A stretch of 59,040 nucleotides of DNA, filler included, from Sphacelaria rigidula (taxonomy: Eukaryota): the NCBI GenBank assembly GCA_964200075.2. It is 5 parts of 5 records of this genome, joined end to end, with 100 filler letters (N's around TTAATTAATTAA, not from the genome) between each part and the next. Parts side by side here need not be neighbours in the genome. Positions count along the whole stretch, not along the records: positions 1 to 11,728 come from CAXNAA020004580.1; 4 more parts are not named here. One strand, 5' to 3'. Shown piece by piece: positions 1-57,006 of this stretch; the first letter of the stretch is position 1; each line of letters opens with the position of its first letter. Below the pieces are notes generated by a model that worked only from the letters and a program-made list of their open reading frames with translations, made no database searches and was not told where the DNA came from. The position numbers were made by a program, and so were the translations under genes.

Positions 1-523
1 GGGCATGTCTGGCGGATGGAGCGACTCGAAGCGCTGCACGAAACTAGAAACAGCGAAGTGCATGGTTTAAGGTTCCTTCCTGTCCTTTGGGGACAAAAAA
101 AAAGCATGATAAAAATCAATGCCATGTACGAAGTTTAAATTCAAGCTCTTGTTGACCAGTTCCCACCGCAAACACGCGCAGTGATCGAGTACGATATCCT
201 TGGAATGAGCGTCGTGCGTCTTGGATGAACAGTGATACGTGTGCAGTGTATAACTATCAACTTTTGCTTTTTTCAGATATAAGCGACGTGATGGTGACAC
301 TTTCTTGTCTTGGATAGTGGTGATTCTGGCCTCGTTTGCCAAAAGGGTGACGACATGAGAGTATTCGCTCAGCCTATTTTTGATGTTGATACACACATCT
401 CAGCGTTTTTCACATGTACTTCGTTTGAGGAGATCGCTCTCTGTTAAACTTCAATTATTATAGATCGGAATAGGACTTGCCTAACCGGCAGCACCTTCGT
501 CTATGCCCCTGCCATCGGTTCAG

Positions 524-3500
524 ATCCAGCAGACGGACGTCAACGCCGGAGGCGTCGGAAGCACCATTTCTGTCGTGGCCGCTGGCGTTGACCGCAAAGT
601 CAGCATTGAGTCCTCAGTGTCCGAGTCTTTCGAAGCTGTTTCGTCGATACTGCTGGGTGAGAGCTCCGTCGCAAGACTGGTCTTTTTCCAAAAAATTATT
701 ACTAGGCAGAATCTCCACGCTCAATTTGTCATGTTTTTTGCCTGTTGTTCTCCCCGTCTGCAGCAGTCGTTTTGAGCAGTATGAAGCCCGCGAAGTACCG
801 AATCAGGGAAGTGGTGCTGCCTGTCAGCAGCGTTTCTCTCGCGAACGATATGGGTAACATCTGTCAATGCGTCGCATCCCCATACACTCACTTCACGTCT
901 AGGCCCTCCGATGCCTACAAGATATTTCATGATAGTGACGATTCCTCGAGACATTTGATGACTCACGGTCAACATGCATGGCTTTTGAAATTCAATATCG
1001 TTGACTAGAATTCAAAACCCTGACCGTTGACGTTGTCATCATCCGCGTATTAGAATATCTGCTATAAAGTACGTTGGTCGATGCACTGCGACTGTTAATA
1101 TCCCTTCAGTACTTTATCCGAGGTCAGCTGCTGTTTTGGTAGATATATTCCCCTGAGATGTATTTCGCGGTGGTGACGGCTGATCCAACGCGCGGGCAAG
1201 GGATAACTATGATGTGAAAATAAGATTATCATATCTGACAGTGATAGCCATGTCTCCGCATAGACGTTCAAAAAAGGCGTTGAACTGCAGGTCACAACTC
1301 CGATCCATTACCCCCCATATCTTGGAACCATATCTTGGAAACGAATGACTCTTCATAGGGTGCTTTAGAAATTCTCATCATTGGGTACAGCACAGTACGT
1401 CTTGGAACATCATGTGTATCTCACGGCAGAACATCGACCGTGAGTAGGGCTGCATCTTGCCATACACCTGTAAAACCGAGTAGGCAGCGCGTGCAGCGTA
1501 ATGGCCCATTTCAATCCCATAAATACCGATTTGGTCGAGCTGTTCTATCTTGCCCGGGATATATCGACTGCACCAGCCTTTATCATTTGTCTAGGTCCTC
1601 TGATCCTTAACGGCATCGCCTCCATGTGTCTCCCGCGCCGATAGGCTGAAGGGTTATTTTCATGTGAACGAATACCATATCCACCTCTGTATTTGGCTGC
1701 ACCCATTGTTTCTGTGACAACGGATCAGGTGGATTCATTGTTTCCGAACATTGAAGTAATCATTTGTTTTTCCTGAACAAAGGTAGCGATCGTGCGGGGT
1801 AAAACTGTATATTAGGCCACTAGATATAGAAGCATGGAAAAGCTAATGGGGTTCAGATCGAAACCATTAAGGCAACACTGAACATCTGTGAAAGCATGAT
1901 CATGGCCGTAGAAAGCACAACTTCTGATGAAAGCCGTGTTGCATACTTGTTGTACGTCGCGATCACTCCTGACAACAGAGTCGATGGCGACAATCGACAC
2001 CAGAGGCGACGGCATCCTCAGTGCTGGCGACACCGTCGAATACGCTGTGTTCATCACGAACACGGGAACTACTTGCCTCACGAATGTTGACGTGAAGGCT
2101 TCGGCTCTACAAAGAGTGACGTGCAACGCGAATCACACAGGTTTGTCGACTGCAACACTTGTATCTCTGCTGCTCTGTTTTCGTACCCCTGAGGGTACCG
2201 AGAACGTGACGTGCGGATGTTTTGAGCCTACGATTCATATACCATGAGCATTTTCGCTCGACGCTGGCGTTGTCGAGGCTGGGTTCTTGAGACGTAGAAA
2301 ATGCTGGTAACACCGTTCGGTTACAGCCTGAAATCAGTGTTGCAGAATTGTCAGGTAACCTGCACGTAGTGTCCAAGCGAGAACACGAAGCACTTCCACT
2401 TACCCAGAGTGTTTCGCAAATTGCTGCAGTATGAAGGGCAAGGTGTGCCAGAAGATTCTCCCTTCTCTAGGCGAGTTCTTGTGAATTGTTCATCTCCAAC
2501 GGTTTGGGGGCCAAAACAACGGCTCCTTGAACTACAAAGGATAATCTTCATCACATAATCTTCGTCATATACTTCTTTCGTGCGAACGCTCCAGCCGCCC
2601 GACGACTCTGTAACCTTCACGGCTAAACGGTCGACACGGATTGAGCCGCTTGATCATTTTTTGGGGTTTTATTTTGGTCTGGCGTGCCTTTGACCTGACT
2701 GAACTGATGCTTCGGCTTCTGCACAAAAGAGCCGAAATGGCAATACTCGAGACCTGAAACAATATTCGATTTCAACCACTGCCTATTTGTTTGTTCAATA
2801 CTTGACAATATTGCCTCTCATAAGCGCTGCGTGCCGACGAATATTTGAACAGGTTCGGTAGATCTGGAGGACATGTTCTGTCCGGAAGACAACAATTTCA
2901 TGTGCAAGGGAAACTACACCATCAGCCAGTATGACATGGACAGGGGTTACTATCGAGCGCTATTCTTCGTGACCTCGTCTAGCCCTAGTGGGGCGAATAT
3001 TTCATCCGATCTTGAGTACTCGGTCGATCTGGTTGGGGCGGCCGGCATCGTCGTATGTGAGCAAACCACTGCATGACAGACTCGAAGCAAGGCGAAACAT
3101 CATTACTCACCGTTGTGTTTGTCTAATAGATGCAGAGTTCGAGGCAAAGTGTCCGTGCTGTCTTTTCGTCGGTGGGGACTGCGTTGTCCATCCATCCATC
3201 CATGATACGTTGGAGATGAGCGAAATCCTCTCGCCGCACATTGGGCGCTTGGATTCCTATACAGGCTAACTCAAAGGCTCGTGAAACGGGCAAGACGTAC
3301 CTACGGAAATTGATTATGCTAATAGTGGGGTGGCGATCAGCCTCGTGCTGCATTGATATAATCAGAACTCACATTCACGAATATTCTTCGCGCTTGTTTA
3401 TTTGTTACTTTTTGTCACACATGCCCATCACATCCATAAATGTGACATTAGCACAACGTAAGCTCAGCTTATCTACGCAAACGTGGCACACTGCAGATCA

Positions 3501-6500
3501 ATCTCGTACATCAGCGTTCGAAAAAATCATCTGAATATAAAACGTGGCTCACAGCCCAGCACCATACCAAACGGAGAGCGCCACGGTACCTTTGGGAGAC
3601 GAATCATCGACGCAGCGCGGAAGGGACTATGGGCATCCCTGTGGCAGTAAAATTGTCATTTTGAAGTGGTTCATATGCTGAATCCAGACGATCTCATTCA
3701 TTCACTTGTCGAAAAAAAAAGCCTGCGAACCAAAAAAGAGGTTCATTTCTTCGCAATGCATGGGACAAGCGACGCTGAGTGCGTCATCAACCGCACCGAA
3801 CGACCACCCTGTCGGTACGTAGCCTGATAGTCGACCCTAACCATTGCCGCAGCCCTTAGTCGGACCATAGCCGTAACCCTAACCCTATTCCTAACCCTAA
3901 CTCTGACCTTGCCTCTAACGTTACTGTAGATATACACGGAGACTATGAACCGACAAGCGGCAACGACAACGCAGCTGTGGGTGATATTGTCCGTTACACG
4001 TTTGCCATCAGAAACAATGGCAGCATCACGTTGGACACCATTGACTTGGTCACATATCCAGCGGTGAGTGTAAAATCCAACTGTGGCGTCCACCGACCGG
4101 TCTGAGTTTCGGGGGGCGTATTTATTTGTTGCTTGCCTTAGTCGTTTGACCATTGACCACGCATCCCTTTCGAGTTTGGAAGGGGAGGGGGAAGGATATT
4201 TTTCAATAGAAGTGATGTTTGGTCACGTATTAACTCAATGTGGACCAGTAGGCCCCCACGGCTGGAATTGCTATATATGTCGCGATCGTAGCGTGTATTG
4301 CTGATTGAGATCCCGAGAAGCTCGCATCAATCGCAAACTGCCCAAAATGTGCAGCACACGGGTTCGTTCAATCATACACCAAACCGTATCGGGTTTATCT
4401 AAAACTGCAAGAATATGAATTGCATAGCATAAAGGTCAAAATTACTCAGCTTGATCGCGGTAGTCTTCATAGCTGGTACCTTGGTACATCACTATTAACA
4501 CACGAGCCTCGTGAATTCCTAGAAAATGAGACCCATCCGACGAAAGTCGCGAGGAATTTGGGGCTCTTCGATTACATGTGGCCATCGCATCGCGTGCAAC
4601 CTGCCGTTGCCATCCGGTGTCATTTTCATTTCTCGTCACAGCTGTCGGATCTCATGTGCACACCGGACGTACTCAACGGGGCCAACTTGACGCTTCAGGA
4701 GCACGCAACATGCGCCGGGTACCACACCATTACACAGGAGGATATCGATCGGGGACACGTGAGTAATCGCGTGTACACCTACGCGCAGAACAAACCCGTG
4801 TAATATTTACTACACTCCGATCAGCCGCAAGTTTTACAGCAGTTCTACTTCTGTCAGACGTTATTTTAATTGTGTTACGTGTACCTCTCATCGATTGACT
4901 TGCTCTTGGCACCTACACCCCACGTCTACATGTGTATCCGAAGAGAAACAAGCATATCAGTATGGTAGCATCTACTCGAAACGGAGTCGAGTGTAGCCTC
5001 CCCGGGTTTTCAGGGTTCACGGCTGATCCACCTGGTGTAGTGCAGTGTTGACGGGTACACTGTAGATTTTTCCGTAACCCTTCTCCTTCCGCTCGTACTC
5101 TTGGGATGCAGGCTACGACATCCGCCACCGTGAGTGCCGAAAGCCCCCTCGGCGGTGTATCTGCCCTAAACTCCAGTACTCATCGGCTTACATATCACGC
5201 GAGCGTGGCGATCGGTGAGACTCAGCGCATAGGACTGATGTTGTGGATCTTGCGCCTCGGCGCGTCTTCCGTGCCGGTCGATGTGTATTTCGAGGCGAAA
5301 GGGATGACCTCATTCAGGAAACAGTTGACGAAAAAGGGCATATCAGTGAAGTTGCAGGCGCTGCCACGTCGGTATGTTTCCACTGGGGTATGCTCTTGGC
5401 TAAGTAGTTTGAACACACCACCGATAAGAAATCCTTTTGCGAACATTTTTTTGTTGTTGTGCCGTCGTCGGTGGTTCAGCTGTATACGTTTCGATAATGG
5501 CACCGGGTAGTGCGCTTCCTTCAAGCAATTGAAAATCTACAACTGCGGTGTCATGTGTTCAGAAGACCGTGAAAAGTGTCAAGGTTCCTATCGTCCTATA
5601 CTGCTCATTCCACGTCGTTCGCCGTAGGCAAATACCTGCTCAAGCCGCAATCGCAAAGTGTGATCAAAATACCAAACAACCGAATAACAACCTCATCAAT
5701 TACCCAAGTAACCGTCCAACCCCGACATCAACAACCGACCAGTTGGTTTTTTAATTTTCATTGGATTCATTTCGCTGCTCCCTTCTTCGGCGTGAAATCG
5801 CATGCCCATCTTTGACATCATTCAGAAACTTCCGGCACCTGGCACGATGGCAACCAAGAGGATTCTCTCGCAGCACCACACGAGAAAATTAGCTACATCT
5901 ACAATATCACCAACGCGGGAACAGTCACGCTGAGTAATATAACTGTTCACGACAGCGCTGTAAGCGACGCAGTGTGTTCGAAGCCAACACTGGCACCGGA
6001 GGAAGTTTTCACCTGTGGCGACCACTTTTACCTGGTACGCAACGGAAACCGACACGTTGCGGTATTACAACGATATGTTTGCAGCCAAGCAAGCGGCGAA
6101 GGAAATCCGTGTACATGCGAGACGGCGTCTGAGAACGTACAATATCAAGTTGGCCTGCACTGGCTCATCTGCTCCGGCTTTCATATATGCTCAGTGCTCT
6201 TGGCCTTTCTCCCACAATTCATGGGTGTGTACTGTACATGGAGAAAGTGGAGCTCGGAGTCCCCTCCTTCTTCACGACACCCTAGCGCAAGCAGTACCAC
6301 GTGATGAATCGCGGTCTAGATAGCCGATTCAAAACATTCTCCTACGGCATTGTGTTCTGTGCGGGCTCCTTTTCTAAACCCTGGCAGAGACCTGTCATGA
6401 CCTTTTTCGGGACCAACAATAGATTTTAGAGTGGCGTATCCCGCCCCCTATTTTCCCCTTTCTTCGGTGATCTTTTCGTTTTGCTCAGTCTTTGTTTCTT

Positions 6501-9500
6501 CGTCTATCCGTTCTTTCCGTTTTCACTGCCCTTCTTTCGAGTTTCCAGCAGCGAGTGCATCCGTACAGTTACCTCAGGTTCGCGTATCTCGTGAGCACGG
6601 CTGGATTTGTGACAGATCTGTTATACTCCAATACCTAATTAATCAACCCGCCACGCCAAATCAATCGATCGTGTGGGAAAGGAGGCACGACCTTCCCAGC
6701 CCTCTCACACATGACAATTTTTACTCAATCGTCGTCAATAATGTTGCAGATTAGTCAAGCTGATATCGATACCGGGACGGTGGAAAATGGGGCAACCGTG
6801 ACGGCGATAGATGCCTTGATGGTGCCGGTATCTGCTGACGTTATCGACAAGGTTCCGCTCAAGCGGACATGGAGCGTCATCATTGGTGAGTTAGCATCAT
6901 ATTCTGTTAGGTTAAGTTGATATCTGGGCTTCACACCTGTCCGATGACTTGTTGGCCACACGAGCCTTACCAGCGGCACGATCAACGCGAGGCAATGGAC
7001 TACCCGGAAATGCGGTTCAAGTTTCAAATGGCTCACCGGTCATAAGCAAATTCTCTCGCGGTTAGCCAGCCGTAGCTCACCCACAGCTCGTGATTTTTGC
7101 CCTTTCAACAGCAGCTGTTCGCGTCGCGTGTAACTGCTGTACGCGTCTGAAAGGAGCTAATTGATGCCTCGTTTTCGATGCGTGTGGATGAAGATCACCT
7201 TGCGGAAATCTATACTTTGCACAGCGTAGCAGATGTTGCTAGTTTGTTGATGAGCCCCTCACAAAAAGCGCCGTAAATGACCCTACATACGATTACCCAA
7301 TGCGAAATACGAGATGTCGGAGAATACACAGTACTTTCCTCAGCATGACATATTTCTTCATAGTAGGATTCGAGTAGGTTCCCTTCCTATACATGGTGTC
7401 ATTTTTCGTGTTTCCCCCCGTAGATCACGGGGGGAATAGGATTACATTGTTCGTCCCAAAGCCTACGTAATACGGGGCCCGCTCTACTTTCTTCAGACGG
7501 TGCAGTGGGGCATCATCTGCTGATCGCTTCCTGTGTACTGAGTCGAAAATACACCGAAATCACAAAATGATCTCGTATGCCGCGCGTAGCATGAAACGAT
7601 TTGTGTAGCATTCCAAGCTCAAGTCTTAGGTTTGCTGGGCCGGCCATTTTTACCGTGTCGCATTCCCATGGATCACAGGACCCAATGGAGAGTGTTGTGT
7701 AAGCCCTACACGTGACGAGAACTGCGGGTCGTACCATTTGCGCGCGAAACATGGAAGTGAAGGCAGGCCAAGAAGTCATGCGAAACCGTATTGCTGTTCT
7801 AAACTGCCGATCCGCCCCCGCGCTCTTTTTTTCCGTAGAGAAAAACTCCACGTTCATGGGCGACGCCCTTCGAGCTAGCGTCGGCGATCAAGTACAGTAC
7901 GACTTCGTCGTTGAAAACAACGGCACGACAACTTTGTCGGGAGCGGCTATCTTGGACGACAAAGTAAGTGCAAGTCGCAGCTGCGCGGTACGCTCTCCGC
8001 AGTGCATTTTTATGGTAGATTTGTGTACACATAACGGCATACTTTACCCACAACTCCTGACCCATCCCATCATCTGGGATTCTTGCTGGAGAAACAGTCG
8101 CGCTGGTTGAAAGCGTCAAGTACACATACAGTCAGTTGTCATGCATACTAGCAAATGAGTCATTTGGTAGGCTTGAAGGTGAACTTCCGACAAGTTTTTG
8201 GAGACCGTTGTGTCAACATGCGGGGCAGACTTTATCACAAATCAACGGTTTTCGTGGTTCTTGCACCGTTGGGTTCGCTCCCAACGTCAAACGTGTTTTG
8301 TTTCATTCCCACTTGTTTCGTCAAGTATGCAAACAGACACTCATAAACTTACACTTGGAAAATATTCGTCAACAGCAACACACTCTGGTGTTGTGGATAC
8401 CCGCAAAGGGAGAAATATGATATATTTCTGTGTTGTGGGTATAATGGCATCATCGCTCGGGATCAAAACGGTCGAGTGTGGACGTTCAGGTGCCGGATAA
8501 CGGTCGTCAGAGTGCCCCGAGGAGGAATGACTATCTTAAAATACATCAAGAGTGGGGGGGACTTGATCGTACCAGAGATGAGAATATCAAGTAACAACGT
8601 GAGGGGGTGCTGCGTACTCTGTAGCAATTGACGTATATCTTCCCGCTGAACTTAATCGTGTCCAGCTGCATTCAATGTTTGTCCTTTTCGATCCATAGGT
8701 ATCTACCTCCCCGGATGAACTAAGCTGTAGTGGAACTCTGGAGTCCATACCGCCGCACTCAAGTGTCACCTGCCAAGGGATGAACGCATACGAGATTACA
8801 CAGGTACCACTACTAAGCATCCACGGCTACGGGTAGCGTAGACCTTTCATCATAGTGCACAATCGACGTGTTGTCTCGCCATACCAGGTTCATGAATCGC
8901 TTGAGACATTGCAGAAACTGTCCGACAGTGTCGTGATCACTAGCTACGGTGCGTGAATCTTGCCGGAAAAGATTTCTCGACTTCTGTACCGTAGGATTGC
9001 GGCGTTCATCGCAATGCAATCAAGGTGAAGTACATGGGTAATATAAATATATACCACATCACGAATATTCACGCCACGTAGGCACTCTCGTTCAAACTTG
9101 GGTTCTATTTTGCTATCAAAGTGGCAACGCTTTCAGATGAGCCTCGTCCACACTTTTTAGCTGCTTATTTGCGCTTTTTTTTTACCGCAGTAAAGGTCTT
9201 GTTACCTTTTTAACCCTGGTATTTGTCAACTAGCGTAAGGAAGGCATCCCAACCTCGAAGCGTCCACACTCTATCCTCGTAGCTCCATCTCTCTCTCCCC
9301 AACTTCGTGCGGTTGATTTAGTCAGATATCACTGATATTCAACTTGCCACACGCGACAAAGTTTTAACTTCGCGCGATCGCTACTCTGCTCTCGCGTCGA
9401 CAACAAACTGGCACACCCAAGTGTTTACATATCATAGCTGCCACTGTAAATTGTCAACCTTCTGCGCTCATTGTGATTCCCAAGTCCCACCCCTCAATCG

Positions 9501-10728
9501 AGGCCTTATAACTGGAACTATTTGCGTTTACCTTCTGTATTCGGCTTCCTCAAAGTTCTCCAACGAACTCATGGTCCACATGCTAGTACTTGGCTTTCTC
9601 TACATCATTTTTCGCTTGTTCCTTTTTCCCTCCTTTCCTCTTGGTTTGTCTTTGAGTTGTGTTCCTGGTTTGTTTTTTCTTGGTTCACTTTTTGTTTTGT
9701 TTTGTCCTGTTCTGCTGTGTTGTGTTCTCTGTATTTCCCTCGTTGTAGGGCTCGTTCTTGGATCCCATCATCCTTTGTCCCTTGTAGCGTCGCCTTGCCG
9801 TGGCTTCGCTTGCGTTGCCTTGCTTTACTTTGCCTTGCTGTGCCTTGCCGAGCCTTACCCTGATCTGCCTTGTTCGTTGTGCCGAGCTACGTTTCTCCTT
9901 ATAATGGCTGTTCGGCCTCTTATGACCTGCCCGCCATGTAGCCGACGAATGCTTCATATTTAACTTTGTTCTTTCGAGCTGTACCATTATTGTTGTATAT
10001 TGTTTCATCACTAGCGTATTCGTAAAGTCCCGTCCTTCCGGACACCGTGTTTTCTTGTCCTTGAGCGATGTTGTTTTCCCCATTTTATGCTGTCTTTTCG
10101 TGCCATGGCTATGTGACCATGGACGCTAGATCCCCGGAAAAGGGCTGATGTAAAAGACAACAACAACGCAACATTTGTAACTCCAAAGTTACCAATTCTC
10201 TTCGTGGGCGTCGTAAGTCCTCGTTCATGTTATCACGAAAATGGTAAAGTAAATATCTCGTTGCTTAGTGAAACTATTTTTTATTCCCCCATTTTCTGTT
10301 TTTTCCTGCAACAGGATGACATTGACTCTGGCAGCTCTGTCAGCACGGCCTCCGTCAACGCCGCATCTGCTTCCTTGGATGCCGCAAATGTCACACACTG
10401 GGTATCGTCAGAAGTGCACATCCCCCGAGATCCACGCGTTTCCATACTCGTAGAGAATTCAAGCCGCACAACTGATCGAGGACTCCTTTTGGCCACTGTC
10501 GATGCCAATGATACGCTATCGTTCACCATCACGATATCTAATGACGGCAACACATGGCTCAGCGCAGTTGAGGTGTCCGATACGCTTCTGGAAGGCATTG
10601 ACTGCGCACCGAACATGTCCGGCGTTGATTCTCGGTTCGCCCCCACCGACGAAGACATTGTGTGTACGGCTCGGGTGACGTTGACACAGTCTATGGTTGA
10701 CGCGGGCTTCGTGGAAACCACGATCAAG
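524..10728 (+). CDS. Partial multi-exon gene for a putative secreted/cell-surface protein of tandem DUF11/DUF7507-like ('conserved repeat domain') Ig-fold repeats; exons 524-656, 1979-2140, 2853-3056, 3930-4063, 4642-4758, 5112-5214, 5826-6034, 6750-6885, 7839-7963, 8699-8803, 10315-10728
   Basis: All 11 exons have AG/GT borders and chain with matching phases into one stop-free 1842-nt (614 aa) frame. A repeat motif recurs: GDTVEYAVFITNTGTTCLTNV / GDIVRYTFAIRNNGSITLDTI / HEKISYIYNITNAGTVTLSNI / GDQVQYDFVVENNGTTTLSGA / NDTLSFTITISNDGNTWLSAV. Each is followed by a Cys pair and then YTISQYDMDRG / HTITQEDIDRG / YLISQADIDTG / YEITQDDIDSG / VTLTQSMVDAG. This fits the remembered consensus GdtitYtftVtNtGnvtL...tytvTqaDidaG.v.NtAtv. 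Start and stop are not in this piece. Confidence 0.88.
3835..3920 (+). repeat. Degenerate telomere-like (CCCTAA)n tract in an intron
   Basis: accctaacc...taaccctaaccctattcctaaccctaactctgacc, ending just upstream of the acceptor for exon 3930. Confidence 0.5.
4113..4190 (+). repeat. Short (~70 bp) dispersed element flanked by G-runs; other copies at ~15051-15120, ~47150-47212 (-), ~49562-49628 and ~49641-49708
   Basis: Shared core gcgtac(t/c)tatttgttgcttgccttagtcgtttgaccattgaccacgcatccctttcgagacggag in four of the five pieces. Confidence 0.8.
9540..10167 (+). mobile_element. Probable 5'-truncated non-LTR retrotransposon 3' UTR remnant in an intron
   Basis: T-rich body ending atgtgaccatggacgctagatccccggaaaagggctgatgtaaaaga + (CAA)n tail. 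It resembles the catgagaccacggctggaccc family ends elsewhere in the window. The left edge is approximate. Confidence 0.5.
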
Positions 10729-11120
10729 GTGAGAATAAGAATGAAATATATGAATGACAATGCCATTTACGTAATTGACCGGTGAGAATGCTACGATGTG
10801 GATATTCTGTGGATATTCTATTTTTTCGGTGAAACTCACTGCGCAAATGGTGTACGGAGACGAACGGATGGATGCGGAAAAGCAAGCCACAATGGAGAAG
10901 CAGCATACTAAAAAAAAGTATGAGAAAATATATCCCCATATTAATCCGGCACTTCTGCCCCCCCCGGGCTTATGATAAACGATGTGTTACGTTTTGATGA
11001 AATCGTATCGTATTTACTGCGTCTGAGTGCGTGCATACCTATTTTCTGGCCTTCTCCTGTGCAGTATCGTCAATTGTATATTATATCGCCACTCTGATTT
11101 GGTACAGACTCCACGTCTAT

Positions 11121-11172
11121 CATGTGACCACGACTGGACCCCTGGGGGGTCAGTTAAAGTGCGACATTCAAT
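11121..11172 (+). mobile_element. LINE-type 3'-terminal motif; related copies at ~26110-26226, ~49888-49950, ~53595-53655 and ~56455-56530 (-)
   Basis: catg(t/a)gacc(a/g)cg(a/g)ctggaccc...gggtcagt(t/g)aaagtgcgaca, followed in most copies by an (AATC)n tail. A related end closes the RTE copy at ~39020-39073. Confidence 0.65.
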
Positions 11173-11521
11173 GTATCACATCAAAACACATTTTACCCAC
11201 TCACCCCTGATACCGAGTATCACTTGCCGGGAGGCTAAAGTACATGGAGGAAATACAGAACTGTACTGCAAGAGCACGGGTACCCAGGTGCGATGGCGAC
11301 ACGCCGTATCGCAGGATAGTACAGCGCACCGTTGTCTGTGGCACGTCTGGAACGTGTAGCGACAATGCGACGCATGTCAGTGATCCACGGTCGATACAGA
11401 AAGGGGCGAAACGTTCAGAAAGATATTTGTGGGCGCTTCGTGCTTTGACTGCTCCTAAAGTTCTATTTCGTGTATCATGGTTCGCATAAACTATGACTGG
11501 CAAGCATGCCGAGGGAAATGT

Positions 11522-11529
11522 TTGTTGTC

Positions 11530-11596
<67 letters not shown>

Positions 11597-11622
11597 GATG
11601 TTGCTGTTGTTGTTGATGTTGC

Positions 11623-11695
<73 letters not shown>

Positions 11696-11728
11696 GATGT
11701 TGCTGTTGTTGTTGTTGTGGTTGTTGTT
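11522..11728 (+). repeat. (GTT)n microsatellite at the end of piece 1
   Basis: Long gtt run with occasional gat/gct variants, reaching the linker. Confidence 0.95.
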
Positions 11729-11828
11729 NNNNNNNNNNNNNNNNNNNNNNNNNNNNNNNNNNNNNNNNNNNNTTAATTAATTAANNNNNNNNNNNNNNNN
11801 NNNNNNNNNNNNNNNNNNNNNNNNNNNN
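11729..11828. other. Artificial linker N44-TTAATTAATTAA-N44
   Basis: 100 nt with a six-frame stop cassette in the middle. Confidence 0.97.
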
Positions 11829-11950
11829 CATGAAGGGTGAGCTGCATCCTGCTAAGATTGCTCGGCCCGAAGCCTACTGATTATCTTGCATTCGGATGAC
11901 AGTCAACAATGAGTTGTTTTATTCTGTGGTATCGCCACTTCCAGAGACAG
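11829..11950 (+). repeat. Dispersed repeat, homologous to ~54987-55105
   Basis: Both copies share gggtgagctgcatcctgctaagatt...tactgattatcttgcat...ggtatcgccacttccagagacag. Confidence 0.8.
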
Positions 11951-12111
11951 GCATGGCTTTTACACTGCTTCACGGGTGTCTAATCAGTGTAGGGGGGGGG
12001 GGGGTTGACGTAGGCATGCCGTGTATTGCCGACAGGCTCCTCTCTACACGCATATCGAGCAACACTGGCAATCCGGCCTCTATCTGATGCCGCAGCACGT
12101 GCGCATCTTAC

Positions 12112-15100
12112 CGTGTGCACCAGAAGCCGCTGGTGGGTATATCGTGCGAAGGAGTGACAGCCTAAAAAAAGCATCTGACGAGTGCGGCGCACCGTTCGTA
12201 GATCTGCATGAGCTCAAACCGGTGACTGCAGCCACCTTTGCGATCGCTAGAACGAAGCACATCGTGTTTGATGGAAACCAGGCAGTACGTTTGCTTCAAG
12301 GTGGATGGCGAACGGCAAGCGTCCTTCCACACACCTTTACCGGTGATGACGATCCTCCCGGCGAGTCCTGCGCCCCCCGCATCTTCAAAATGTAGGGGAA
12401 CACCGCGCCTTGGGTGAAGAGGTCCACCACATCCAGCTGCATCAAGCTAAAGTGCATCAACTGCAGTGTTTGGTTATACGATGAAAAAATGTATTTGTGT
12501 TTGTGTATACGAGTTTTGCGCGGACGTCGGTGGCACCGGAAAAGGGGGAAATGTTGACGTAGGGTTAGTGTGGGTTTAAGGTGGTGGTGGTGGTGGACGC
12601 TGAAGGTGGGCAAGCGTAGAGCAAAGGTAACTCGCACAGTGGCTGCGAGGTCGGTGAAGGTAAAGGTGTATCTCGGCCATTGCCCATTCTCGGTGATCAT
12701 TCGCACCCTTTGCAGTGCAATCAAACTCACGAGCGAGCTATTCCCTTGCATTTCCAAGTCGGCCGCGGTGTCAACCTTCGCCTCCAGCAGCGGTACATCC
12801 CGACGGCCGTACAGTCTGAATGCTCCGCAGCACCTAGCAGCCGCCCGTATTTGCACGTAGTCCGGCGGTACCTGCTCCGGAAACATTCGCCGTACGTGGG
12901 ACACACGGCATTACGGTCAGTGCAGACGGCGATATCCTACCAATTGCGTGCAAAATTAGAACGGGCAGCGCACGCCACCCAGCCCCCTGTACCCTCTGAG
13001 CCATTTTTGGCTGCTGCTGATTGGTGTTGATGCAGTTGCCAGCCTTCGGCTGCCATGTTTGAGTTTGACACGGCGCTGTGCTGCCCTCCACCGCCGCCCG
13101 TACCCTTCATGCAGCACCCATCACCCAGCCCACCCCCTGCAGCACTGTCCAGCCCCCTTCCATATCACCTGGTCTTGCTCACTATCTGGGTGGTTCCTGG
13201 TCTTTTCTTCCGCATTTTCCCGTGAATGCCCGTTGTAGTCTTTTGTAGTCGACGCACATGGGGTTCATATGTAAAACAAAGCACAAATCGTTTTGGACGA
13301 AAATAGCATGATGGGTGTACAGTCATATCTCGAACGGTCTGAACACCTCCGACAGTCCCCGACCAAACCAAGTGCTCTCCCCGTACGTCTTCGTATCCAT
13401 TGCGCAGTTACAGATGAAGCTTGTGGCTGACAGTACCGAGATCACACCCTACAAGTTCCCCCCCGAAACATCCCTCGACATGTCGATCCAATTTGACCCT
13501 CACGCTGACTGGATTGCTTCGATATCACCCTCACCAACACGCACAACGATCAGAAGAACAACCCACGAAGTCCCTGCCGAAGATGCCCATTGACCTTTCC
13601 ACATACCTCCTTGGGCTTATCCTTCTCCGCGATGAAGGCGCCCAGGTCGTCGATGGATACGTCTCCGTCCTGTTTGGCCTTGTCATCACGGGTCAAATTG
13701 CCCCACCACCCAAACCAACCTTGTTGCTTCTTCTTTTTCTGCTTGTTCTTCTTGTGTTCATTACACGTGTTACCATCTGTGCGTTCTTCGACCTTCGTGT
13801 ATTGGCCGGCTCGTTCCGCTTCGTCGCGGAGGCGCTTTAGCTGTTCGCCAGCGAACCGGCCCCATTGGCATGAACGGCACATGAAAGACACGGCCAGGAA
13901 ATTCAAAAAGGGAACAGATAGACAGGTACAACGAAGCACGAACCAGCGGTGACGGAGAGGAGAGGTAGAGAGGGTTGTGTCCGCCTTCGCGGAGCACATG
14001 ATGAATCAATCCCGATAGAGTACAAGTCTCTGCGCAAACCAATTGGTGCAGAATCTTTCAATACTTTATCGGCCCAGATCTTGGACATGGACAAACTCCT
14101 GAACAACCACCTGCAATTTTTTATTCGAAACTCGAACGCTGACCAAGAGGAATCATATGGTGAGGTATCATCGTTTTGACTGGTGATTGATTGGTGGAGC
14201 CCAGCTTGTGCCCACAAACCTACCTCCCGACCCACCCATGCATCTATCCGCGAATACTACGGCAACAACCGAAATAGCAGAAACCACAACGGCGAACATG
14301 ACTGCGTCAACGCTCACGTTTCTCCTGGCCATGGTCCTGAACATTAGGATAGCCTCCGCCGGCAAGCTCTCTTCCATAGCGTCCAGCTCAGATCGCTCTT
14401 CATCTTCGAGAGGTCGAAGTAGCCCAATGGCCTCGAACGACGGGGGGGAGCTGTGTTCACTCTCCCAGCTGGCTGCAGCTACCCGTTCGAAAAGAGACAC
14501 ATATTTCTTCCTCGCTGCTATAATCTATCCGATCGGGGTACAAGCAGATGGGAAGGGCAGGGGCTAGTTTCCTGATTTGTTTGCGCAAATTGTGAAGAAA
14601 AAAAAAAGAAGCAGTACAGCCAATCAGTACACCAATCACTGCGGTATTATCCGGCCGAACCTTGTTTAATCACTATAAAGAGCCCGCCGTGGTTCACGTA
14701 TTATTACGCAACAACGCCACACCGACAGTCAACTTCAGTGAGTTCGGGCGTCGAACAGCGACGAACAGAACACTGAAGTCTTGCATGAGGCCTTTGCCAT
14801 TTGGAAAATACGTCCGCGCACCTTCACCAGTTTAGAAACGGCCCCCGGTTTTCCTTTCACGCACACGTACGCGTACCTGCACACGGTGTGGGTGCGCGCA
14901 GGGGGGGGGGGGGGGGCGGACCCCCTTTTTGTTTGCTTTATTCGGGGGCACATATACCACCACTCACTTTAGGGCGGGGGGGGGGGTCGCAAACNNNNNN
15001 NNNNCGCGCGCCGGAGGGGGGTGGGGGGGGGCGGGGGGGGGGGGGGGGGGGGCGTACTCACTTTTTGCTTGCCTTAGTCGTGTGACCATTGATCACGCAT

Positions 15101-17655
15101 CCTTTTCGAGACGGAGGGGGGCTAGCAATGCCAAGGTAATATGCATACTCTGGAAGGGCGAAAGTATAAGGTGGAAGTGACCCAACGCGCGGAAATGAGT
15201 GTGTGGTGGTGTCCTACAACGGAATAGCGGAACAGCTCTCTCGCAACCTGTCAAAGCTAGTGCGAATCCCTACAATGTGCAAAGTTCATCGCGAATGCGA
15301 CTAAAAGAGAGGGCGAGGTTAAGATACCTTGAGTTTGAAACATGATCCAACCTTGTTCGCAAGCGCCGTGGACACAGCAACGCACACATGGCGTAATGTT
15401 GATAACAGCAGCCGACAGAGCGAAAAAAACGACCACTCTTGGCTGTTCGTGAGAGTGAAAAACCAGACGGCGATAGCACCGCTGCCGCTTGTACGACCCC
15501 GCATGGTGCAAATCTCTGAAATAATGTTTCAAGCCGGTTCTTGTGCACCTCCACCAAGCCCTAGGGTCCTGCAATGGGCTGGCCTTCGGACGATACGGAA
15601 AGAATATCTGCCAGTTGGCCAGGGCGACGAAATTGTCCTTGAGCTGCAGAATCTGTTCGTACTGCTCCGCTCGCAAGTCGACCCGGATATCGTCCACCTG
15701 CATTTCGATATGCAACGGCGTTCACACGCACGAAGTGCCCCAAGTTACCGTTTATAGTTCTTGATATTCATCGCCATCAAGTTTGAATGAATGTTTCAAG
15801 ATAATTAACCAGCATTCATCCCTGTAATCGCTTCCCCCCTTCCCCCCCGTACACACCCCAGCACATCGACGAACTTTTCCTCCGGTTGACCAAGGGACCC
15901 CATGTGATGAAATTCTCCACCCTTCGCTTGCGCAAAAACAAAACAAGTTCGAAACTAGATCAAATCAAATCAACCGTACCTCAAGTGAAGCCTCGAACTC
16001 TGGCCCTATCGTATCAGCGGGGTCGTCGTTATGGGTGAGCTTCAGCACAGCACTCATGGGCCTGATCACATCCCCGCGCGCCAGTCCGCCCCAATTTTCC
16101 CCTTCCGGGTCCACCGCCTGGTCGTCTACGAATTCGTTCAGTCCGTAAAACCTGAGCTCTGGGGGTAACAACGCATACCTGGACATCGAGGAAATAGGTG
16201 AACGAGGAAGGCCACGGTGGGGGTGTCGGGGAGGGTGGAAGAAGTAAGAAGGGAGGGAGAAAGGAATGAGAAGAAATGGGCAAGGAAGGGATGCGACTGA
16301 GAGGAATGAAGCTCAACATACGAGCTGCATATGCGGCATACGACAAATCCCCCCAACGCGGGGAGCGAGGCTAGCACGTAGACCGCACAGCGATATCCGT
16401 GACCAAAACATCACCAATCACGGCCGTGACAGAAGCCGTCACGTAGGGGGTGGGCAGGATGCGTACTATTTTTAGTATACTCGATGTAGCCATACAGGGG
16501 GTTGCAATCTTTTGCACGGATACTGGCATTTCCGCCTTTGACTACTCGAAGCAGTATAGGCTGCTTCCACCTGAAAAGCACAGCTTTCCTTCAAAATAAA
16601 AATTTCCCAGGTTAGCGTTCGATTATTATCATTATCATTATTGTTATCATTATTATTGTTATTACAGCACATTAGTCCAATCTCTCGAACCCGTGGTCAC
16701 CGAGGTAGGCTCGTCTTTTCAACATCGTCCCTGCTATTCCTTACAGTACATCGAATTCCCATAATCTTTTCCGAGATCCCAGACTAAAAACAAAACAAAA
16801 ACAACCAATATACATATATATATATATATATATATATTACCAAATAAAAATGAAAAGAGAGACGCCCAGAAAACAGGTGAGAAATATTTTCCCCGGATTC
16901 ATCGGGGTGAAGAAAATAAGCGAACCCTTCAGAGCTGCCAACAAGCATACCGGAAGAAAAGGGACAGACAAGGAAAGACAGATGACAAAAGGATGTTAGC
17001 ACGGTCACCAAGCGGGGGTCAACTCTACAGCCCCAGGCACCCTATATACAAGTACCACAGCTGTTCGGGAAGACGGCAGATGCACCAGCGAATGTACTAC
17101 GCGACGGGCTACAGGTTATTTTTCGAGGGTTCTAGGTAGGCACTGGGGGAACTCTAGTGGTGGCACAGCGAGCGTTTCCTCAGCATGGCGTGCTTTGGTC
17201 CAGACTCGATTATCAACCGAATTTCCACAGTCCTGCCCAACCAGGTGACAGACATTTTCTCTTTGGAACATCTATTGAATCGGGGTCTCTTCTTTCAAGG
17301 CATTCGGATTTCAGTGAAACCGAGCCTCCTTGAGTCGATCTTAATTTCGAATAACGTGAGACTCATCATTTCAATCAATCACGAGTTTCACATCGAAACT
17401 ATCCAAATAGAGTGTTCTATCGATTACAAATTTCTGGCGAGCCTCTTCTATTCCACGACTCAACATGGAGGTCAAAAGTTAGGCAATAACTCGAACACTA
17501 CCTCACCAGTCAGAGCAAAAAATAAACGCTGATTGGCGATGAACCACAAACGATTCGACTCCTCGCTCAGAGCAGCTCCGAATTTTTCGTTCTCATCATC
17601 ACAATTTGAATATGGCGTGATTTCACCATGTGCGCAGATTTTTAAAGTGAGGCAA

Positions 17656-17730
<75 letters not shown>

Positions 17731-18962
17731 GTCGTCCAATCTATTCTGGGCGCCGGTCTACACCTTTCGGCATACATGGGCGCACCAGCCGGGGTCACAC
17801 GGGAGAAAAGCCAACACACGGGGTTTTTTTCTTGTTTGTTTTTATTTATCCACCATCCTTCTGCAGTGCTTGCCTTTTTTTATCGCGAGAGGGGTTCGGC
17901 AGTCCCTTTCCCTCGTCGCGACCATTACGTCGAACTTTAGAGCATGTGGTAGTGCTTTGTAGTTACAAACGCTCCCAACGCTCGGAATTTAGCATTTCGA
18001 TATCAGTGGGAGCAAAACGGCTGCGGTTTTCACTGAAACGCATCATTTCTTCGTATTGGCAGAAAACTGTACCCCACAGCGCGACTAGAATCGCGGCGCT
18101 GTGATCGTTCTATTTTCAGTGGATGGTTTCCAAACCGGCGCCGTTATTGCAGCTATTGTATGTCTCGGAATCGAACCAGCTTGTGAACGAATGCTGCTCC
18201 GATTGATGACGCCGCACGAACAGCAGAACAGCGGAAGTTTCGCCTTTTCCAGATATTCGATCTAGAACGACCGTGCTCTCTCTATTTAGGTCGACCGACT
18301 ATTAATACCAGCACTTGGGAAAGCTGCTCTCATCTCACTTAACACGTTCGGGTCGTTTATTCTAAGCTGTCAGACATTTGGAGATATTCGGAACTCCTGG
18401 CCTGCTCTGATTCTGTGCTGTTCGACCGCTAAAAAAGGACAAGGGTGCCCTGTCCTCATAATAGTGGTTCAAGTGTCACTTCATAGGGAGCTATGAGTTC
18501 GTACTCAGCCTAATAAATACTATTCGCACCAAACCTGACACGTGCGCGCGTAGAACAAAGTAGACATTTGCCGAATCTTGATATTAGGACCTGTGGCGCT
18601 CAGGAGAAAGCGCTCCTGCCATTTTTATATTCATTTTGCAGTTCCACTCTATTCTATTTATGATCCTCTGTGCTGTTGTTGCGTGGCACGCGTGTATGTG
18701 AATTTTTGTGTCAACAGCAGCCTTATCGAACGTCATGTGCGCCATGCATGCACAGCCTACGGTGCTCGATACGTGCGGAATCTCAACCCGAACATCGATG
18801 GAAACGGTGCAAGGGCGCGTCGGGTAGGATATCCAGATACCTCGGACTGCTAAAAAGTCGCACATCACCTGCCCAAGTCGGTCACAATGACTTGGATGAG
18901 CTTTAGAGAGGAGAACAACAGCGCTGGACTAGCTGCTGCTGTGGGAATGGGTTGGATCTCCA
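12112..18962 (-). CDS. VPS13: Partial VPS13/chorein-family lipid-transfer protein, N-terminal region; exons 18962-18869 (tentative), 16178-15980, 15697-15549, 14876-14822, 14524-14318, 13840-13607, 12871-12731, 12460-12335, 12235-12112 (tentative)
   Basis: Phase-compatible GT-AG exons give DVIRPMSAVLKLTHN...VDDIRVDLRAEQYEQIL...YRPKASPLQDPRAWWRYAY...ARKKYVSLF...ELDAMEESLPAEAILMFRTMA...QQGWFGWWG...PPDYV...LDVVDLFTQGAVFPYIL. These are VPS13 hallmarks in the expected order (yRP..prxWWxYA, RxxYxxL, ExxL..IxxxRxxA, GWxxWW). Both ends are unresolved. Confidence 0.85.
16620..16920 (-). mobile_element. Retroposon-like 3' end with (AAT)n tail, homologous to ~54125-54410
   Basis: Both copies read (tat/att)n then gcacattagtcc.at.tctcgaacccgtg...ccctgctattccttaca...agagagacgcc.agaaaa. 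Confidence 0.65.
17659..17729 (+). repeat. (TG)n microsatellite
   Basis: About 35 TG units. Confidence 0.95.
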
Positions 18963-46160: not shown

Positions 46161-47212
46161 GACGCAGGCAAAGTTCGAGAGAAACAGCTTCTTCCATGAA
46201 TTTTCGTGACGGGAAACTCACGTCAATCTTTCGTTACGGGAAACTCACCGGGATTCTGACACCGATTAATTCATTTAGCGCGCAGAATTACCGTGGGCAT
46301 CCTCGCTTGTAACTTTGAGTTTGGGAATTCGATTCCGCCAAACTGGTTTCGCAGGGTGGGGCCTTGTCGTCACGTCTTATCCCGTCGCATCTCCCGACGG
46401 TACTGAGCGTGTGGGTGATTTCTCGATTTTGATTCTTGTGAGGTAAAAAATCGCAGACAACCCTCGTAGTTTCTTCTTGAGTCTTGTTTGTGCATATACT
46501 GTAGCCCATGCGGAGGGGTGGCTAAATGACAACATGCGTCGCCGAGGATATTTGCGTGCCAGTCGCGTGTGCTAGTCGTATTGGCCCGTTTGATTGTTTC
46601 CATGGAGATATGGTTGATGGTAAAAGGAGGGGGGGGGGGGGGGGGAACAGCACGGGGAAATAATATTTGAAAAAAACGAGATCATCGTGACGCTTCAGTA
46701 CCACTTCCTGGAGTACTGTATACTTATTGGGATTGCGCCCGTGTGTATTTCCGCCCCAAGGCCTGCTTTTACTGGCCACTGCGAGAGGCTAATTGATGCG
46801 TAGCTGTTTGCCTTCGAGAGCTTGCGATAAACCTGAAGTTCTGCATTTCGGTCGCCTCGTGAAATTGAAAAACCGTGCAGGGCATGCCAGGCAATATGGG
46901 GAGAAGGAGGAGGGGGGTGGTTCATCGTTGTGGATGACGCCCTTACTATAACACGGCCGGACACGTCGACGCACTCCCCCATGAGGCCCCGATTTTTCAG
47001 CAACCACATCATCGGCCTTTTCAAGTTCACGAGCCCAACCCTTGCCCGCATTTAACGAACGAGCGAAATGGTTCATTTTTTTTCAGTGAAGTCCTCTCAC
47101 ACCACCGAAAATCTATAGCCTAAGCGTGCCAGCGGAGTTGACCCCCTCCCACCCCCCCTGCTCCGTCTCGAAAGGGATGCGTGGTCAATGGTCAAACGAC
47201 TAAGGCAAGCAA

Positions 47213-56284: not shown

Positions 56285-57006
56285 GAATGCAGTCGTACAG
56301 TATATGCGGTAAAAAAAAGCTATCGCGGGAACTGCGGAAATCTCAAGCCACGGTACTGCACCCTGTCGCGGAAAATCGCGGTAGATGGCATTTTGTCCTG
56401 TACACGTGTGTTCATGTACGCGTATAATTTTTCAATCAACGAACGTACGAGTGCTTTGATTGATTGATTGATTGTCGCACTTTAGCTGACCCCTCAGGGG
56501 TCCAGCCATGGTCTCATGATAGACGTACCCAAGAAAAACGAAATTCGAACACGCTCTAAGGGAAAAAAAAAAGAGGGGTCGAACAGAACGACATGGCAGA
56601 TTACGTGGTGTAAAAAAAAAGTGATAAAAATTCAACACAAGCAAAGCACAGAAAGAAATCGCCGACCTAAAGCAAGAAAAAGAAAAACAAGAGGAAAGTA
56701 CGAAGCAAACAAAAAATATACAATAAAACGATGGGAAAAAAAAGAAAAGAAAAGAATACTGCGACTCCGAATGTCATTGTTCAAATACAGGAAGGGACTC
56801 GAATGCAGTTGTGCTGTATACGCGGTGAAAAAAAGCTATCTCGGAAACTGCGGCAATCTCAAGCCACGGTACCGTACCCTGGCGCGGAAAATCGCGGTAG
56901 ATGGCATTCTGTCGTGTGCACGTGTGTTCATGTACGCGTTTACATTTTTCAACCAACGAACGTACGAGTACTGCGACTCTGAATGCCATTGTTCAGATAC
57001 AGGAAG
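56285..57006 (+). repeat. Tandem duplication (~210-bp unit x2) whose first copy is split by a LINE 3' fragment (~56453-56756, - strand)
   Basis: 56285-56452 plus 56757-56799 align to 56800-57006. The insert begins with (GATT)n and the reverse-complement LINE terminal motif. Confidence 0.75.

Follow-up and report, generated by a model that had tools for sequence, protein, structure and literature searches.

The window analysed here is a stretch of 59,040 nucleotides from the alga Sphacelaria rigidula (assembly GCA_964200075.2), and we consider it likely that its positions 524-10728 (+ strand) hold the 3' part of a nuclear, alga-like gene that is split by introns and encodes a chain of Ig-like CLIPPER_2 (DUF7507) domains, a stalk or matrix protein of probably bacterial origin. 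Judged from sequence, this is a eukaryotic, intron-split CLIPPER_2 array without the isopeptide triad of its bacterial relatives. Three features are new, namely the absence of the triad with a Cys pair kept, an intron of phase 1 that recurs at the domain boundary, and a number of N-x-S/T sequons that is twice the shuffled expectation.

DUF11 was renamed CLIPPER and DUF7507 CLIPPER_2 in a survey (PMC12617251, Protein Sci 2025; preprint 10.1101/2025.04.25.650565), and all statements on it made here refer to the available part of its text. There, an Asp-catalysed Lys-Asn isopeptide bond is predicted for both families and shown for CLIPPER in the structure 9IFR, the DUF7507 example of its Table 1 has Lys 72, Asp 112 and Asn 152, and, on the question of a eukaryotic occurrence of isopeptide domains, DUF7507 is placed in bacteria and archaea, with all eukaryotic matches judged to be likely false positives or contamination. 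As ten introns interrupt the domains of the gene described here, the family would occur in a eukaryote and not as contamination. If true, the gene would provide the first well-founded case of a CLIPPER_2 protein in a eukaryote, and it would correct the dismissal of eukaryotic DUF7507 matches in the available part of PMC12617251.

Exon-intron structure of the gene

The exon chain was built by enumerating all frame-compatible GT/AG pairs between open pieces of the + strand, and the 11 exons and 614 amino acids announced in an earlier note on this DNA, made from the sequence alone, were rebuilt exactly. The spliced model is free of stops over 1842 nt, its ten GT-AG introns measure 353-1511 nt, and it is open at either end, where it is bordered by an acceptor (523) and a donor (10729), respectively. 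Bases 1-12000 contain short open frames only, including the pieces used, and their GC content is 44-56% in 2-kb bins.

The chosen sites resemble true splice sites more than chance would give. Indeed, if the donor that follows exon 11 is included, 8 of 11 donors read GT[GA]AG, compared with 18 of 825 GT (2.2%) in bases 1-11700, for a binomial P of ~8e-12 that is somewhat inflated because consensus strength was used in choosing among frame-compatible sites; moreover, 8 of these 18 strong donor sites fall exactly at exon ends. All acceptors are YAG (11/11, versus 47.6% of all AG), and the GC content is 53.9% in exons (62.2% at third codon positions) versus 47.2% in introns. Intron removal yields complete repeat units that are collinear with uninterrupted bacterial repeats, which makes decayed DNA an unlikely source of the pattern.

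Furthermore, a collection of 5.8 billion clusters contains three short open reading frame (ORF) fragments related to exon 11, P0162, P0180 and P0181, with 81, 59 and 44% identity (alignment A2), and the "family" of which the earlier note spoke is thus present, as a small one. Upstream of ...Q|DDIDSG, P0180, the sole homologue that crosses the exon 11 acceptor, bears no relation to the window; conservation begins at that point. At the other border, Val-Arg (the translation of the donor GTGAG) directly follows the last exon 11 codon in all four sequences, with divergence beyond it; in the window a stop comes at 10783, 18 codons past exon 11, whereas P0162 reads through that position. Because of the upstream break in P0180, the shared Val-Arg and the read-through in P0162, the borders of exon 11 appear to be conserved as borders and the gene should continue past 10728. 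The exon-intron structure is therefore supported by sequence criteria: GT-AG introns whose removal leaves an open, collinear frame, as for spliceosomal introns, together with the splice consensus and the conserved exon 11 borders, all of which favour the eukaryote-style split gene that had been proposed.

Repeat units and family assignment

A regular expression retrieves the motif T/S-Q-x-D-h-D-x-G five times, and a variant, QQTDVNAG, was spotted by eye at the start of the model; the motif G-D-x-h-x-Y-x-h-x-h-x-N-x-G likewise has five occurrences. These motifs delimit five complete repeat units together with the beginning of a sixth, and with the Cys pair present in 5/5 units they bear out the earlier description of about five repeats plus a partial one. 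Cuts at the TQ motif give units of 114-125 amino acids that share only 20-33% pairwise identity, by which they are old copies and not a recent tandem array. Residues Q2, D4, G8, N73, G75, L79, C94 and C109 are kept in all five.

Pfam was run on the nine single-exon ORF pieces that remain once exons 1 and 6 are left out. DUF7507 (PF24346, CLIPPER_2) matched eight of the nine at E <= 0.1, and three of them scored above the curated gathering cut-off of 27 bits (47.3, 33.3 and 30.5); the other five (E 1.2e-5 to 0.086) stay below it because each piece holds half a domain only. DUF11 (PF01345, CLIPPER) reached at best 22.6 bits, with the exon 11 piece, and 14-15 bits with others, below its gathering cut-off of 24.6. 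By profile, the repeat is thus Pfam DUF7507/CLIPPER_2, and of the two names given to it earlier, DUF11/DUF7507-like, the second holds and the first does not reach its threshold.

A search of 1.84 billion representatives with exon 11 as the query found 2276 proteins at E <= 1e-3, and 224 of these reached E <= 1e-30; the top relatives are giants of up to 6414 amino acids with up to 51 matched stretches. Twenty of the 150 listed clusters were looked up; eight were named and seven came with an organism (Haematomicrobium, Aeromicrobium, Knoellia, Psychromicrobium, Naumannella, Brevibacterium and Tenacibaculum), bacteria in every case. The first six genera belong to the Actinomycetota and Tenacibaculum to the Bacteroidota. 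The ranking does not point to a donor, because the listing favours proteins with many repeats. Among the nine rows listed from the ESM-Atlas, all DUF7507 clusters, eight are Bacteria at 100% and one has no recorded taxon. These rows and the named relatives, together with the available part of PMC12617251, agree with the earlier statement that the repeat belongs above all to surface proteins of bacteria and archaea.

A scan of JGI metagenomes returned one locus (L001, 38% identity) with an uninterrupted ORF of at least 1708 amino acids, which is bacterial because its ORF is uninterrupted. A search for longer homologous proteins gave no match, which is weak evidence. The two bacterial relatives with the highest listed identity to exon 11 (P0020 and P0054, 40-42%) begin with lipoprotein-type signal sequences (...LAAC SGG/SGD).

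Isopeptide triad, Cys pair and fold

To locate the triad, 153 full repeats from seven bacterial proteins were aligned with the five algal units, Lys and Asp of each structural domain being taken from unit j and Asn from unit j+1. Column 45 is Lys in 86% of the bacterial repeats and S, I, T, K and N in algal units 1 to 5; column 86 is Asp in 100% and A, Y, D, D and D, respectively; and column 12 of the next unit is Asn in 99%, where the algal residues are S, A, T, N and S, with T in the partial sixth unit. The spacing of these columns, 41 + 41, fits the 40/40 residues in the published Lys 72/Asp 112/Asn 152. The full Lys-Asp-Asn triad is found in none of the five algal domains (0/5), so that the bacterial-type adhesin repeat put forward in the earlier note is not simply such a stalk, its hallmark triad being absent. 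The homologues concur in part: the Asn column of domain 5 is Thr or Ser in 4/4 sequences (the window and the three homologues), and the catalytic-Asp column of P0162 is Gly.

The Cys pair (columns 94 and 109) is present in 88% of the bacterial repeats and in 5/5 algal units. According to the available part of PMC12617251, 34.9% of CLIPPER_2 domains combine a disulfide with an isopeptide bond. Given this co-occurrence, a Cys pair in 5/5 units and a triad in 0/5 domains, the algal protein probably derives from the Cys-bearing kind, of which only the disulfide bond was kept.

An AlphaFold2 (AF2) model of exon 11 was computed from alignment A1, which comprises one algal homologue and 18 bacterial proteins, and has a mean predicted local distance difference test (pLDDT) score of 79.8. 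Residues 1-40, the tail of the preceding domain, are poorly predicted (block means 41-84, with only residues 1-13 below 50), and residues 41-138 form a largely confident beta-sandwich without its last strand and with a short helix over the TQxxxD motif; the fold expected of the family is a compact, CnaA-like Ig sandwich with some seven strands. In an independent wide fold search, the CLIPPER structure 9IFR ranked first among 48,161 chains (Z 6.1, root mean square deviation (rmsd) 3.3 A, 86 residues, 17% identity), and the isopeptide pilins RrgB, FimA, SpaD and PitA had Z of 5.0-5.4; VIA-align gives the same Z, rmsd and residue count for 9IFR, which is tied there with the gamma-adaptin ear and TRAP-beta sandwiches. 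Searched against PDB sequences, the A1 profile retrieved 9IFR alone (E 0.0047); the Lys and Asp columns conserved in the profile align with a Lys/Asp pair of 9IFR at a distance of 34 residues (33 for the published Lys 715/Asp 748), and exon 11 by itself had no match at E < 0.3 in a search of PDB sequences. These fold results fit the family without proving membership, for which we rely on the profile matches given above.

Intron positions and features of the product

Introns 1, 3, 6 and 8 are all of phase 1 and split column 44 in four successive units, with none there in unit 5. This column is the start of strand A and hence the boundary of the structural domains. Introns 4 and 9 (phase 0) both lie between columns 88 and 89, intron 7 and the exon 1 acceptor (phase 0) at 114/115, and three positions are unique (99/100, phase 1; 9/10; 2/3). 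Because positions are shared among units that are only 20-33% identical, the introns probably predate the duplication of at least part of the array. Intron gain before duplication explains the shared positions most simply, and the alternative is that introns may have been inserted in parallel at similar sites. With phase-1 introns on either side, whole domains could be duplicated in frame. Extracellular modules bounded by introns of phase 1-1 are typical of animal matrix and adhesion proteins (Ig, FN3, EGF), which the algal domains resemble in being phase-1-bounded in four successive units; they differ from these modules in domain family and lineage, both unrelated, and in that they also hold internal introns.

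The spliced product of 614 amino acids has 14 N-x-S/T sequons, versus 6.9 +/- 2.2 in 2000 shuffles (P 0.0025), 12 Cys, a Lys content of just 1.6% and a net charge of -55, features that would suit a glycosylated, secreted, acidic protein. Among the hallmarks of fibrillar adhesins (signal peptide, tandem stalk, distal adhesive domain, anchor), the tandem stalk is seen, and the 5' end of the gene lies beyond base 1.

Table 1. Exons of the spliced model and the donor that follows the last one
Feature	Position	Strand	Content	Donor	Profile match
Exon 1	524..656	+	End of the upstream domain (QQTDVNAG) to domain boundary; first exon of the model, partial	GTGAGA, phase 1	
Exon 2	1979..2140	+	Domain 1, N-terminal half (GDTVEYAVFITNTG, first Cys)		DUF7507, 25.7 bits, E 1.2e-5
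Exon 3	2853..3056	+	Domain 1, C-terminal half (second Cys, SQYDMDRG), to next boundary	GTGAGC, phase 1	
Exon 4	3930..4063	+	Domain 2, N-terminal half (GDIVRYTFAIRNNG)	GTGAGT, phase 0, column 88/89	DUF7507, 24.3 bits
Exon 5	4642..4758	+	Domain 2, Cys pair and TQEDIDRG	GTGAGT	DUF7507, 22.9 bits
Exon 6	5112..5214	+	Domain 2, final strands to boundary	GTGAGA, phase 1	
Exon 7	5826..6034	+	Domain 3, strand A to second Cys		DUF7507, 33.3 bits (above cut-off of 27)
Exon 8	6750..6885	+	SQADIDTG and final strands of domain 3	GTGAGT, phase 1	DUF7507, 18.2 bits
Exon 9	7839..7963	+	Domain 4, N-terminal half (GDQVQYDFVVENNG)	GTAAGT, phase 0, column 88/89	DUF7507, 30.5 bits (above cut-off)
Exon 10	8699..8803	+	Domain 4, Cys pair, end ...YEITQ		No Pfam match alone; hidden Markov model (HMM) of the units, E 2e-5 (HMM built from the same sequences)
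Exon 11	10315..10728	+	138 amino acids; end of domain 4 and almost all of domain 5, stops in penultimate strand (...GFVETTIK)		DUF7507, 47.3 bits, E 2.2e-12
Donor after exon 11	10729..10734	+	Translates Val-Arg; invariant in 4/4 homologues, which diverge beyond	GTGAGA	

Antisense to exon 11, an open frame of 161 amino acids (10281-10766, - strand) has no family match and is most simply the mirror of a coding exon, not a gene.

Comparison with known systems and proposed origin

The closest known systems are the bacterial DUF7507 giants, such as those of Haematomicrobium sanguinis (WP_026531225.1), Knoellia koreensis (WP_171245074.1), Aeromicrobium sp. Leaf245 (WP_250246802.1), Brevibacterium luteolum and Naumannella. 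The algal protein has in common with them the repeat length, the motifs TQxDxDxG, GDxIxYxFxVxNxG and xLxxVxV, and two paired Cys at a spacing of about 15 residues; in both, repeats follow one another head to tail, with 27-42% identity in the search of representatives. Unlike these proteins, the algal gene is intron-split and sequon-enriched and has lost the triad, which is kept in 86-100% of the bacterial repeats. The bacterial LPxTG anchor or lipoprotein signal is not visible in the algal model, whose ends lie outside. In the CLIPPER structure 9IFR, from the Acinetobacter silvestris adhesin B9T28_05395, which is both the best structural match and the only PDB match of the A1 profile, an isopeptide bond between Lys715 and Asn806 is proven and the last strand contains a CTTC disulfide (PMC12617251, available part). 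The algal domains differ from it in lacking the triad, in the placement of their Cys pair and in a DUF11 HMM score below cut-off.

Among algae, a gene of Phaeodactylum tricornutum, Phatr3_J48356, is annotated as "DUF11 domain-containing" in the available part of PMC12113381, where it was chosen as a low-salinity-induced gene. It resembles the gene described here as a gene of a photosynthetic stramenopile with the sister Pfam family, a likeness that is one of annotation, and it spans about 2.4 kb, far less than the algal DUF7507 gene. Because of this annotation, domains of the DUF11/DUF7507 type do not seem unique to Sphacelaria rigidula among algae. Full-text literature searches returned no description of an algal protein of this kind; one supplementary file of PMC12617251 has no eukaryote terms; and neither DUF nor adhesin is mentioned in the main text of a brown-alga preprint (10.1101/2024.02.19.579948), while its archives on horizontal gene transfer and InterProScan may list the DUF7507 family. 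The view that the family had not been characterised thus agrees with the literature found, its novelty being tempered by the annotated diatom gene (PMC12113381, available part).

Transfer from bacteria is the most economical reading of the sequences. In the mechanism that we propose, the domain would have been acquired from bacteria, and the array would have grown in the eukaryote by duplication of domain modules bounded by phase 1-1 introns. The protein would enter the secretory pathway and be N-glycosylated, each domain would be held by one disulfide and a hydrophobic core in place of the autocatalytic isopeptide bond, and the chain would form a rigid, acidic stalk or matrix component outside the cell, in adhesion or the cell wall. 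A more far-reaching scenario is offered tentatively, and we lean somewhat against it: the stalk of a bacterial fibrillar adhesin, captured by an algal ancestor, would have become a eukaryotic matrix family by gaining phase-1 introns at its boundaries, multiplying as exon modules in the manner of animal matrix proteins and exchanging the isopeptide bond for a disulfide and glycans, and the window would perhaps show just the end of a giant gene that carries dozens of repeats.

The gene would offer a natural test of what takes the place of a self-forming cross-link once a bacterial surface domain functions in the eukaryotic secretory pathway, and a clean case of the remodelling of a bacterial stalk domain. 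It would also be an independent, non-animal example of a phase-1-bounded domain multiplied in tandem, and it bears on the extracellular matrix of multicellular algae. Its practical value is modest until the full gene and its expression are known.

Weighing of alternative explanations

Several results weigh against the reading favoured here. Foldseek with the exon 11 model gave no PDB match at E <= 1e-3 and placed 9IFR at rank 17, and generic beta-sandwiches lie within 1 Z of the CLIPPER fold match; of the structural check suggested earlier, the top rank of 9IFR in the wide search therefore speaks for the family, and the empty Foldseek result and the tie in Z with unrelated sandwiches do not. 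The sequencing runs compared for splicing (X8-X10, guessed to be RNA, which covered dispersed repeats only, and the low-depth X5; none is recorded as RNA) gave neither a spliced joint nor a difference in cover between exons and introns. The signal peptide and anchor regions lie beyond the readable sequence, and the extracellular location is deduced from the features of the product. The repeat phylogeny that had been suggested was run with FastTree on 5 algal and 63 bacterial repeats; the smallest split with all algal units contains 19 tips (support 0.73), so the algal units form no supported clade and have no sister, and the best bacterial scores per unit, 30-50 bits, come from different proteins for different units. 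The register of the triad Lys is uncertain by two residues (column 45 of the unit HMM, column 43 of A1 and A2), and P0180 and P0181 carry Lys and Asp, not Asn, in the domain that matches domain 5. Finally, the unit HMM, run in six frames over about 48 kb downstream, found no exon after the donor at 10729, though this conserved donor demands one, and the gene could be truncated at this place by repeats, a microsatellite or the masked stretch 11729-11828.

Such a truncation would be expected if the locus were a relic, that is, real exon remnants of an acquired gene, truncated or silent and without a functional protein. We regard this as unlikely: besides the missing exon, it draws on the high-copy repeats, microsatellite and masked stretch directly downstream and on the Gly in the catalytic-Asp column of P0162, the closest homologue, and it has against it that 11/11 exons are open with intact splice signals, that the fold-defining residues are kept in 5/5 units despite 20-33% identity, and that exon 11 is conserved in three homologues while its flanks diverge. 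That there was no transfer into the alga at all, the family being old in eukaryotes through vertical descent and losses, or the transfer having gone in reverse, also seems unlikely to us, if by a little less. The great divergence of the units, a tree without a bacterial sister and the diatom gene annotated as DUF11 (PMC12113381, available part) would suit an old family, against which stand the bacterial nature of every source-named organism among the 20 clusters and of eight of the nine listed Atlas rows, the mere three short homologues among 5.8 billion clusters, and the survey (PMC12617251, available part) that found DUF7507 in bacteria and archaea and dismissed eukaryotic matches.

It is improbable that the covalent cross-link persists in some domains or in the Lys/Asp-bearing relatives, with the chain a true CLIPPER_2-like stalk. 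In favour of such a bond are the Lys (column 45) and Asp (column 86) of unit 4, the Asn that unit 4 gives to domain 3, the Lys and Asp of P0180 and P0181 in the homologous domain, and a Lys register that may shift by two residues. Against it, all three residues occur together in 0/5 domains, and Thr or Ser fills the Asn column of domain 5 in 4/4 sequences. The register guided by the homologues puts a hydrophobic residue at the Lys position in all five units (column 43: L, V, I, I, V), column 44 reads E, Y, E, E and E, and under each of the three registers Lys is found in at most 1/5 units. Bacterial contamination or a chimeric assembly, to which the bacterial nature of the closest relatives might point, is highly improbable given the ten canonical spliceosomal introns that interrupt the domains and the dispersed repeats of the host inside introns. 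Furthermore, when words were sampled from bases 729-10728, 99-100% of them occurred in three runs from two samples under one organism label, and 68% in one "algae metagenome" run. A captured, intron-split CLIPPER_2 array thus remains the reading that we prefer.

Genomic surroundings

The unit HMM, run against all six-frame pieces of the window (59 kb, either strand), matched the 11 exon pieces only, which it does by construction since it was built from the five units, and the next match had an E of 2.2. A candidate half-domain upstream of the model (ORF 298-447) looked motif-like by eye and was rejected, as it has no unit-HMM score and its bases 298-390 lie in a high-copy repeat.

An exon resembling VPS13_N lies at 15260-15721 (-) and covers profile positions 280-336 with 24.2 bits (E 8.9e-6), below the cut-off of 80 bits. 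Pfam runs on 196 further ORF pieces (the 100 largest beyond 10.8 kb and 96 minus-strand pieces from 10.7-23.1 kb) returned this exon and two sub-threshold matches at chance level only, and no second VPS13 exon was found among the 96 minus-strand pieces. This exon and the dispersed high-copy repeats in introns suggest a eukaryotic neighbourhood. Rfam found no family (0) in the window.

A high-copy repeat occupies 10921-11310, downstream of the donor at 10729; this stretch and 1-390 reach depths of hundreds to thousands in all runs, so that repetitive DNA flanks the gene fragment, and a look-alike of 10921-11310 is seen in translation near 56432-56773 (-). A dispersed repeat of 51-64 nt is found at 4111-4174 (+), within intron 4, and at 15047-15110 (+), 47167-47212 (-), 49557-49622 (+) and 49638-49696 (+). 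The repeat has no Rfam match, and the summed depth over 4124-4174 is 50,000-100,000 in all four runs compared, most other bins having about 1-3 (X5) or none (X8-X10). A possible identity for this repeat is the conserved core of a short mobile element of very high abundance.

Paired runs of 44 N are present at 11729-11772/11785-11828, 23557-23600/23613-23656, 35385-35428/35441-35484 and 47213-47256/47269-47312, with a further N run at 14995-15004; the strict period of 11828 bases of the pairs suggests masking or record handling, not assembly gaps. In the protein collection, the exon 11 ORF is assigned to a "contig" of 11728 bases, equal to the sequence that precedes the first N run. Microsatellites lie at about 11519-11728 (a GTT/AAC trinucleotide that adjoins the first N block), 17650-17740, 26960-27350 and 34950-35384, and comprise trinucleotides of the GTT/AAC type, TG/CA dinucleotide runs and a long trinucleotide tract, which are the source of homopolymer-like ORF translations.

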